64,000 nucleotides of DNA from a phage, in assembly GCA_020857175.1 (NCBI GenBank), contig GCA_020857175.1_3048.1. One strand, given 5' to 3'. The first letter of the stretch is position 1. Each line of letters starts with the position of its first letter. A program made the position numbers and the translations under genes. Below the pieces are notes generated by a model. It searched no databases. It saw only the letters and a list, made by a program, of their open reading frames with translations, and was not told the origin of the DNA. Positions 50,122 through 51,761 of the stretch are shown one piece after another.

Positions 50122-50901
50122 TTAATTAAAAATATATACTTCATCAGTTCCATTCTTTTCTTTGGAATGATATATGTTAAAGACGTATTTTTTATTAAGA
50201 TGCTTAACATTATATTTTTTAGACCATTCTTTAAGAAGAGTGTTTTCCTTTCCGTGATGCTCTAAAACATTCGACAGTCCAAATTTTATTCCTCTGTCAT
50301 TTAAAGAATCTAAAAGATTTAAAAGGTCTTTTTCTTCTTCTTCTGACCAAAATTTATTATAATCAGCAACTGTTATAAGATATGGAGGGTCCACATATAC
50401 AAAATCGCCGTCTAGAATTTTGACATCTTTAAAATGCAATGAACTAAAGATTATTTTATCACAATTTTGTTTAAAGTGATTAAAGCGTTTTTCACTATTT
50501 TTGTTTATAGTTCTTTTTCCAAACGGAGTAGTAAAATTTCCTTTATCGTTTATACGAATCATATTACTAAACCCGTGAAAATGAAGAACATAAAGTAAAA
50601 GAGGATCTCTAGTTTTATTATAATCTTCACGTAATTTCAAAAACTCTTCTTTTGATGTTTTTGATAGTTTATATTGCTTTATTACTTTTAATACGTCATC
50701 CCATGATACATTAATAAGACGCTTATACATTTCAATAATTGGTTCTTGAATATCATTGGCCAATACAGGACCATTGACGTTCAAAGACACTGATAAACCT
50801 CCACAAAATAAATCCACGAATCTGTCATATTTTGGAAAATGAGGCTTAAGTTCAGGTAATAATGACTGTTTATTACCTGTATACGCGATAGCTCCTAGCA
50901 T
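50122..50901 (-). CDS. dam: DNA adenine methyltransferase Dam
   Basis: 259 aa with DPPY motif and [10 protein letters not shown]-binding motif; same length as T4 Dam. Confidence 0.85.
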
Positions 50902-51461
50902 TATATTCTCTCATTTATTGCAGCAAAAAACGAATTATATAATTCTTCATCATATGTATTTGATAGTAATACTAACACGTTTTGTGATTTAGCATATTCA
51001 TTAAACCTTGCTTGGATGGTTGGATTATCAGTAAATGATTCTCTTTTTGTCCATTTATTACGTGGATAATATCCGCATGGCAAAAAATCTAATATCATCA
51101 ATGACACAGGGTTTTCAGTTTTTGTGTATTCTTTTAATTTCTCTTTATCTTCTAAATATATTCCAACCGAATCAATAGCTGTACCTCCACCAACTTGGTG
51201 TTTAATTTCAATTATATGCTTTTTACCGTTGCGAGAAATAACAATATCAAATCTTCTAGTACGCTTCTTAGTTATAAAATTAGAACAAAACAAATTATTT
51301 GATTTTTCAGTATCATCGGTTAAAACCATTTTTTCTTGATAACTAACTGAACAATCAGTGAAATATTCTTTTACTTTATTAAGTATGAAATTTTCAACTA
51401 CGGCAGATATTTTATATGAATCTCCGTTTAAAGCCATTTCATGCACAATTTTATTAATCAT
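50901..51461 (-). CDS. hypothetical protein (186 aa), stop-start coupled to dam, possible PD-(D/E)xK nuclease fold
   Basis: TAATG overlap with dam start; segment [21 protein letters not shown] resembles D...ExK core; own early-type promoter upstream. Confidence 0.5.
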
Positions 51462-51484
51462 TATATCATCCTCAGCAATTTATT

Positions 51485-51516
51485 TTATAATACCATAACA
51501 AGCTGAGAAAGTAAAC
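51485..51516 (-). promoter_or_regulatory. early-type promoter upstream of 186-aa ORF
   Basis: minus-strand GTTTAC at 51511-51516 with GGTATTATAAA -10. Confidence 0.45.
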
Positions 51517-51560
51517 AAATTTATGAAATTTGTGATAAATATTAATTTAAAGGAGGACAT

Positions 51561-51761
51561 ATGGCACAAAAATTAATGGCACTTGTTAATGCCATAAAAG
51601 GTAATAAAAAACGTATAGCTTTTACTATTTCTGCTATGGTAGGAATTTTACTCTGGAACTTTATTTTATCACCAATTGCAATTGCGCATGGTGTTAATAT
51701 TCCAGTAGTTACTCTTGATACATTCGTAGATCTAGCATTTGCTTTAGTTGGGTTAATTTAA
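51561..51761 (+). CDS. small two-helix membrane protein (66 aa), plus strand
   Basis: strong RBS AAAGGAGGACATATG; two hydrophobic segments; convergent with gene 61. Confidence 0.45.
   Translation: MAQKLMALVNAIKGNKKRIAFTISAMVGILLWNFILSPIAIAHGVNIPVVTLDTFVDLAFALVGLI

Follow-up and report, generated by a model that had tools for sequence, protein, structure and literature searches.

The 64,000-nucleotide stretch of phage DNA analysed here (contig GCA_020857175.1_3048.1 of the GenBank assembly GCA_020857175.1), referred to below as the window, carries an open reading frame (ORF) of 186 codons directly ahead of dam, the gene of a DNA adenine methyltransferase. The question raised by this locus is what the product of this frame, ORF186, does beside Dam. 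Tequatrovirus genomes such as vB_EcoM-fFiEco06 match the region at 99.9% identity. The gene order on its minus strand is SegF, 56 (dCTPase), dam, ORF186, and 61 (primase; 51758–52786 in the ORF list), and a plus-strand ORF of 66 codons sits between ORF186 and gene 61. We propose, with a probability of roughly 60%, that ORF186 (50901–51461, minus strand) and dam (50122–50901, minus strand) form a two-gene type II restriction-modification (R-M) cassette of T4-like phages. In this cassette, ORF186 would be the restriction gene (R), encoding a predicted small PD-(D/E)XK type II restriction endonuclease which most likely cuts unmethylated GATC, and dam would be the modification gene (M). Alignment of the window with the cassette-less phages T6 and RB3 places the approximate extent of the cassette at 50122–51552. 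A nuclease/methyltransferase pair was the leading option of an earlier sequence-only reading of this DNA, and it agrees with the predicted fold, with the invariance of the catalytic residues and with the strict association with dam, all described below. The coordinates which that reading gave for the ORFs, their overlap and the promoter were all correct.

The linkage to Dam is the strongest functional evidence for the pairing of the two genes. The product of the window dam gene is a GATC N6-adenine methyltransferase with 98% identity to T4 Dam, and it matches the Pfam D12 class (E 6.5e-51) and the TIGR00571 dam model (E 1.4e-69). T4 Dam is known from the literature to be specific for GATC. The DPPY motif as well as K11, S112, R116, P126, and R130, the latter five being residues that contact GATC in the T4 Dam–DNA structure, are kept in an alignment of the window Dam, T4 Dam and the R-adjacent Dam orthologues, which share 52–98% identity with T4 Dam. 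As judged from its identity to T4 Dam and from these residues, the window M is predicted to methylate a defined short site, GATC. The linkage was assessed in the window, phage T2, Dhakavirus MX01, Klebsiella Jiaodavirus KPV15, and five metagenomic lineages, two of them at about 30% identity. All ORF186 homologues with genomic context adjoin the 5′ end of a T4-Dam orthologue, with an overlap of 0–35 nt or, in T2, a gap of 13 nt, and no R homologue without Dam was found among them. The association was seen in three genera and in three genome neighborhoods: between genes 61 and 56, downstream of rIIB and denB (rIIB–denB…topoisomerase), and upstream of rIIA. R and M are thus separate, adjacent and co-inherited genes, as expected of a type II R-M system. 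The window M resembles the solitary Dam of T4 in its sequence and in its locus between genes 56 and 61; it differs in being paired with R.

The protein family to which ORF186 belongs is small. ORF186 is an end-to-end match to PHROG 8706, which is annotated as "unknown function". About 10 relatives were found among 5.8 billion proteins, and a profile search over 1.84 billion cluster representatives gave 11; the relatives from both searches are all phage-like. A tblastn search of 72,556 plasmids returned no relatives, and a bacterial source of the family was not found in the two deep protein searches or on the plasmids. The NCBIfam models gave nothing meaningful for ORF186, and a profile search with the family alignment against the PDB sequences gave no match at E≤10. 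The length of the family members is kept at 186–190 amino acids across genera. In an alignment of nine members reaching down to 29% identity, E23, D72, E85, K87, H88, Q89, and the block G93-T-A-I-D-S98 are invariant. Compared with its orthologue in Dhakavirus MX01, ORF186 shows 64% amino acid identity and a ratio of nonsynonymous to synonymous substitution rates (dN/dS) of 0.19, which shows that the gene is under purifying selection. Its divergence from MX01 equals that of the essential primase gene 61. Because of this primase-like divergence and the low dN/dS, ORF186 is regarded as a long-standing, selected resident of the locus.

The predicted structure of ORF186 is that of a PD-(D/E)XK nuclease. 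The AlphaFold2 model (pLDDT 79, pTM 0.79) has a core of one helix, three strands, a helix and a strand, which corresponds to the alpha-beta-beta-beta-alpha-beta core of the superfamily. The putative catalytic residues are placed as in the superfamily motif, with E23 on the first helix, the acidic D72 on strand 2, and E85-x-K87 on strand 3. The segment that the sequence-only reading had likened to a D…(D/E)xK core is real: FDIVI…EIK is invariant across the family. Structure prediction and profile comparison of the 186-residue protein, both proposed there as checks, led to this fold and not to a non-nuclease one. The significant Foldseek matches of the model are exclusively PD-(D/E)XK nucleases. 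The top structural neighbor is the restriction enzyme MunI, with a Foldseek TM score of 0.59 over nearly the full length, and hhalign places D72, E85, and K87 of ORF186 on the established catalytic residues D83, E98, and K100 of MunI. Phosphodiester cleavage by ORF186 is predicted to be metal-dependent. Fold, conserved residues and genetics all support the nuclease/methylase reading, in which the enzymatic activity itself is a prediction. The system is of a known kind; its ORF186 family of small restriction-type nucleases is new and uncurated.

Two kinds of restriction enzyme are of particular interest for comparison. Structurally, the MunI (C/AATTG)/EcoRI-like class is closest to ORF186, and its catalytic motif is superposable. 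The Pfam EcoRI and MunI models, however, gave no match at E≤1 with any of seven ORF186 family members. In addition, as read from the sequences, far fewer residues separate the catalytic strand from the GxA-type recognition helix in ORF186, and its partner methylase speaks for GATC as the recognition site and not for AATT. The GATC systems DpnII and MboI resemble the cassette in their methylase, the partner of ORF186 being likewise a Dam/DpnM-family enzyme with GATC as its target. For five of the seven family members the best Pfam match is DpnII (PF04556), with a best E of 8.3e-5 and all matches below the curated threshold. The PADLOC model REase_II matches ORF186 at E 9e-5. ORF186 and DpnII have in common the motif RFD(I/F)VI…IE(I/V)x…GGG(T/S), and the order of secondary-structure elements in models of ORF186 is that of the DpnII C-terminal domain. 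For a profile–profile comparison a DpnII-family alignment was built, the query for which shares 99% identity with a database protein and reaches a PF04556 score of 336 bits; hhalign aligned E23, D72, and E85 of ORF186 to the invariant E152, D201, and E214 of DpnII. A solved DpnII-family structure with which to compare the model does not exist. The two proteins differ in that ORF186 has K87 where DpnII has N216, and in that ORF186 belongs to virulent T4-like phages, where R precedes M and a second methylase is missing. From the sequence comparison DpnII is a probable distant relative of ORF186, which is not itself a member of the DpnII family (PF04556).

The arrangement of expression signals is consistent with an operon. 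The stop codon of ORF186 and the start codon of dam overlap in the sequence TAATG (50899–50903, minus strand), in which base 50901 is common to the TAA of ORF186 (50903–50901) and the ATG of dam (50901–50899); the overlap reported from the sequence alone is therefore present, with one shared base. ORF186 is preceded by a promoter of the T4 early type and a ribosome-binding site (together 51469–51516, minus strand), which would serve the R-M operon. The promoter consists of GTTTAC at 51516–51511, a 17-nt spacer, and TG-n-TATTAT at 51492–51487, and the Shine-Dalgarno sequence GAGGA lies at 51473–51469 on the minus strand. A GTTTAC −35 element is typical of T4 early promoters. The same −35 element occurs upstream of the ORF186 orthologues of Dhakavirus MX01 and of the metagenomic locus L008. 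A generic scan of this AT-rich stretch for sigma-70-like promoters gave 12 matches against 12.3 expected from shuffled sequence, and such a scan alone is weak evidence for a promoter of ORF186. The own early-type promoter claimed in the sequence-only reading is thus borne out by its elements and by the recurrence of GTTTAC, the generic scan adding little.

The distribution of the cassette among Tequatroviruses was deduced from about 500 records; 184 records were viewed as ranked samples. About two thirds of the records, including T6 and RB3, do not have the whole 1.43-kb cassette, and gene 56 is then followed directly by the 66-codon ORF. R together with dam is carried by 149 records, including T2; about 30% of Tequatroviruses, T2 among them, have an intact R. 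About 33 records, including T4, carry dam with only the last 87 nt of R, and all of them have a common endpoint. No record with R and without dam was found in the ranked samples of the 184 records. Tequatroviruses either have or lack the R-M cassette as a unit. The endpoints of the T4-type deletion are marked by an 8-bp direct repeat, TTTGTGAT. Its left copy (50981–50988, plus strand) is exactly where the match of the approximately 33 records ends, and its right copy (51529–51536, plus strand) is the other endpoint. Since the window has two copies of TTTGTGAT and the T4 junction carries one, the 548-bp loss in T4 is attributed to recombination between the repeats. The deletion removed most of R with its ribosome-binding site and its promoter, so that the whole promoter element is missing in T4. 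These data suggest that the solitary Dam of T4 is the surviving half of a phage-borne R-M pair. The statement of the sequence-only reading that T4 has no such genes at this place holds in so far as comparison of the 61–dam interval across T-even genomes revealed no conserved intact ORF186 homologue in T4; it does not hold for the 66-codon ORF and the 87-nt remnant of R, both of which T4 has.

At least three independent disruptions of R with dam left intact were identified, namely the T4-type deletion and those in Bas37 and G4500. In Bas37/KarlGJung (locus L017, 1201–1386) a stump of R of 61 amino acids is left. In G4500 (locus L018, 301–860) a frameshift splits R in two. A further 1-nt deletion near the 3′ end of R is common to T4 and T2. 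Because of this deletion, the R allele of T2 (locus L004, 1501–2046) encodes 181 amino acids ending in …YNSFLLQ, and the TAATG overlap is gone.

Taken together, the following mechanism is proposed. R and M would share one early operon with its own promoter, in which R comes first and translation of M is coupled to that of R. ORF186 would act as a small orthodox restriction endonuclease, most likely homodimeric and Mg-dependent, with an active site composed of D72…E85-x-K87 and E23. Dam would confer immunity: N6-methyladenine at GATC would spare the phage genome and the chromosome of a Dam+ host. The association of ORF186 with Dam, together with its weak resemblance to DpnII, leads us to infer that the enzyme cuts GATC only when unmethylated; its catalytic activity, specificity for GATC, sensitivity to methylation and biological target are all to be read as predictions of this kind. 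Candidate substrates would be the unmethylated or under-methylated GATC DNA of co-infecting phages and DNA from Dam− sources, and dam-less T-even relatives could also be targets if ORF186 tolerates modified cytosine. The order with R first and the lack of a control protein can be explained by the virulent lifestyle, because a virulent phage need not protect its host before R appears. The cassette would move and be lost as a unit, and R could decay while M stays, T4 Dam being such a relic. A further-reaching proposal, which we consider rather unlikely, is that T-even dam is the modification half of an active GATC R-M weapon that cuts competitors in mixed infection. If true, the weapon would hit the unmethylated GATC sites of other phages, possibly those of the two thirds of T-even relatives without dam. 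It would then explain the polymorphism of the cassette, contribute to the depletion of GATC and give the T-even Dam its long-missing function.

Several observations weigh against the proposed R-M cassette. Its weakest point is the target. All hosts of these phages that we know of are Dam+, and the phage DNA is already hydroxymethylated and glucosylated, which makes it hard to assign the enzyme an ordinary target or to see why the phage would need protection. The resemblance to DpnII is limited as well. The window ORF186 scores 16.8 bits on PF04556 against a gathering threshold of 23 bits, and the match covers only positions 152–235 of 278, which correspond to the catalytic core. The distant homologues P0011, P0013, and KPV15 give no DpnII match on their own, and the hhalign match of the two families (E 6.7e-4 over 91 columns) has a probability of 27%. 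With 186 amino acids against about 288, ORF186 also does not have the N-terminal helical domain of about 140 residues present in DpnII. In many further T4-like genera a Dam orthologue occurs without a detectable R, and the C-terminally shortened R allele of T2 may be impaired. Finally, GATC is the most depleted of the 256 tetranucleotides in the window, with 78 occurrences observed and 215 expected (0.36), but the depletion is equally strong in T6 (locus L014, 1–50000), which has neither dam nor R (55 against 164; 0.33). GATC is also depleted in the smaller samples of MX01, KPV15, and metagenomic T4-like loci. The depletion was therefore rejected as discriminating evidence for R activity. It is compatible with long lineage-wide exposure to a GATC-directed nuclease and equally with host-related selection, a known influence on enterobacterial phages.

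The same data were considered in the light of other functions for ORF186. The protein may be a PD-(D/E)XK nuclease with another job, such as non-specific or structure-specific degradation or nucleotide scavenging, its position next to dam reflecting only shared early expression. The fold fixes no more than the superfamily, the non-restriction proteins Can2, McrC, Bax1, and VC1899 score nearly as high as restriction enzymes, and the link to DpnII is below threshold. Such a function is nevertheless improbable, given that the pair is kept in three unrelated genome positions and down to 29% identity with no R homologue found without Dam, and that MunI, which aligns over nearly its full length, is a complete type IIP enzyme of 202 amino acids. 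A methylation-dependent enzyme of the DpnI kind would cut the Dam-methylated, cytosine-containing GATC sites of the host, the phage being spared by its glucosyl-hydroxymethylcytosine and its Dam topping up host methylation. In its favor, host DNA offers the one plentiful GATC substrate of a Dam+ cell and is methylated. Early expression would fit host shut-off, and the R-then-M order without a control protein is tolerable only if the host needs no protection. We hold this option to be quite improbable, since the sequence similarity is to the methylation-sensitive DpnII, ORF186 has no winged-helix reader domain of the DpnI kind, and the phage's own DNA has N6-methyladenine at GATC, as established for T2 and T4. 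Cytosine-containing DNA is, to our knowledge, already degraded by the T-even endonucleases II and IV.

Very little weight is given to a GATC nickase of the MutH kind, which would act on hemimethylated phage or host DNA and feed recombination-dependent replication or repair. MutH is likewise a small PD-(D/E)XK protein that reads the methylation state of GATC, and T4 replication depends on recombinogenic ends; the MutH-like fold of the GATC nucleases MutH and Sau3AI was, however, looked for in ORF186 and not found. It is just as improbable that ORF186 has become a relic without catalytic activity or that it binds DNA to regulate dam expression. The repeated disruption of the gene in nature with retention of dam and the shortened C-terminus of the T2 allele would agree with this, but a relic would not retain the invariant catalytic quartet, a dN/dS of 0.19 and a length of 186–190 amino acids. 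The least credible proposal, raised in the sequence-only reading, is that ORF186 works with the 66-codon ORF, which encodes a membrane protein, as a toxin-immunity or exclusion cassette. The two ORFs do lie side by side in divergent orientation. Their distribution contradicts the proposal: the 66-codon ORF, named dam.1 after the RB3 record, is present in T6 and RB3, both without dam and ORF186, and in 693 phage records as against about 160 for ORF186, and the R–dam pairs of KPV15 and of locus L011 have no dam.1 beside them. The membrane ORF was accordingly rejected as a partner in the cassette. Since dam.1 and the cassette each occur without the other, dam.1 is a neighbor.

The R-M cassette proposed here can be compared with other virus-borne nucleases. 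The chlorovirus pair R.CviAI/M.CviAI, which recognizes GATC, is similar in that both the GATC restriction enzyme and the protecting adenine methylase are encoded by a lytic virus. The chlorovirus enzymes are thought to degrade unmethylated host DNA. Because the host DNA is Dam-methylated here, the target of ORF186 must be a different one. The free-standing homing endonucleases of T-even phages, such as SegF located 1.3 kb away, are likewise optional nuclease genes, polymorphic among close relatives and inserted between conserved genes, and both SegF-type genes and ORF186 could bias inheritance in mixed infections. In contrast to them, ORF186 is a PD-(D/E)XK protein rather than a GIY-YIG or HNH one and always occurs with a protecting methylase, and its presumed site is short and scattered genome-wide instead of being a single homing site.

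No published description of ORF186 was found in the literature searched. The GenBank record of phage Shinka already labels the gene "putative DpnII restriction endonuclease". The whole ORF186 region is contained in the T2 dam record M22342 of 1988 (locus L016, 83–627), in which a 1-nt gap relative to modern T2 breaks the frame; this gap may be the reason why the gene was never called. Miner and Hattman reportedly described, in J Bacteriol in 1988, an unexplained insertion of 536 bp located 5′ to dam in T2 as compared with T4, a size that agrees with our alignment. Although the Dam enzymes of T4 and T2 have been models for decades, we know of no clear benefit that they bring to the phage. Should Dam serve as the antidote in a restriction cassette, this benefit becomes directly testable, and all three haplotypes are in culture, in T2, T4, T6, and the BASEL phages. 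The cassette would add restriction-modification to the tools of T-even competition beside the Seg and Mob homing endonucleases, and it could yield an unusually small GATC-specific enzyme. The locus would also be a clean natural example of a solitary methyltransferase that arose by in-situ decay of a complete R-M system. In a genome-wide survey, this origin was deemed uncommon, and complete R-M systems were counted as 9 in 831 phage genomes (PMC4176335).

The gene dam.1 (51561–51761, plus strand) lies outside the cassette and encodes a conserved small hydrophobic protein that matches PHROG 2024 (E 1.6e-31). In the 693 phage records it always adjoins the primase gene, including those of Mosigvirus at about 55% identity. 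T4 carries it as well (locus L002, 3239–3439), unannotated in NC_000866. The protein was described from the sequence alone as having two membrane helices and its gene as having a near-perfect ribosome-binding site. The site, AAGGAGG at 51550–51556, is present; as to the helices, one clear hydrophobic span (approximately residues 19–43) and a hydrophobic C-terminus were found. A late-promoter-like element of the form (T/G/A)ATAAATA is located 20–25 nt upstream of this strong ribosome-binding site, with the sequence GATAAATA at 51534–51541 in the window and a perfect TATAAATA in Dhakavirus MX01. From these signals dam.1 is probably a late gene.

Three further features of the region were noted. 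A terminator-like hairpin, ATGGCA…TGCCAT followed by TAATTTTTGT, is located just 3′ of gene 61 (51576–51595, minus strand). It falls within the 5′ coding end of dam.1 on the opposite strand, and a terminator is annotated there in some related records. If functional, it would shield the R–dam promoter from primase transcripts. The ORF of the SegF homing endonuclease (48882–49556, minus strand) overlaps gene 56 at the 3′ end of the latter, and its product shares 99% identity with T4 SegF; in T6 and RB3 this position is occupied by other small ORFs or by nothing. An ORF of 118 amino acids (52956–53312, minus strand) matches only the C-terminal half of the Pfam family AdfA (anti-DarT factor A, T4 gp61.2) at E 2e-8. 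With T4 61.2 having 208 amino acids, the AdfA-like ORF of the window is shorter or truncated.

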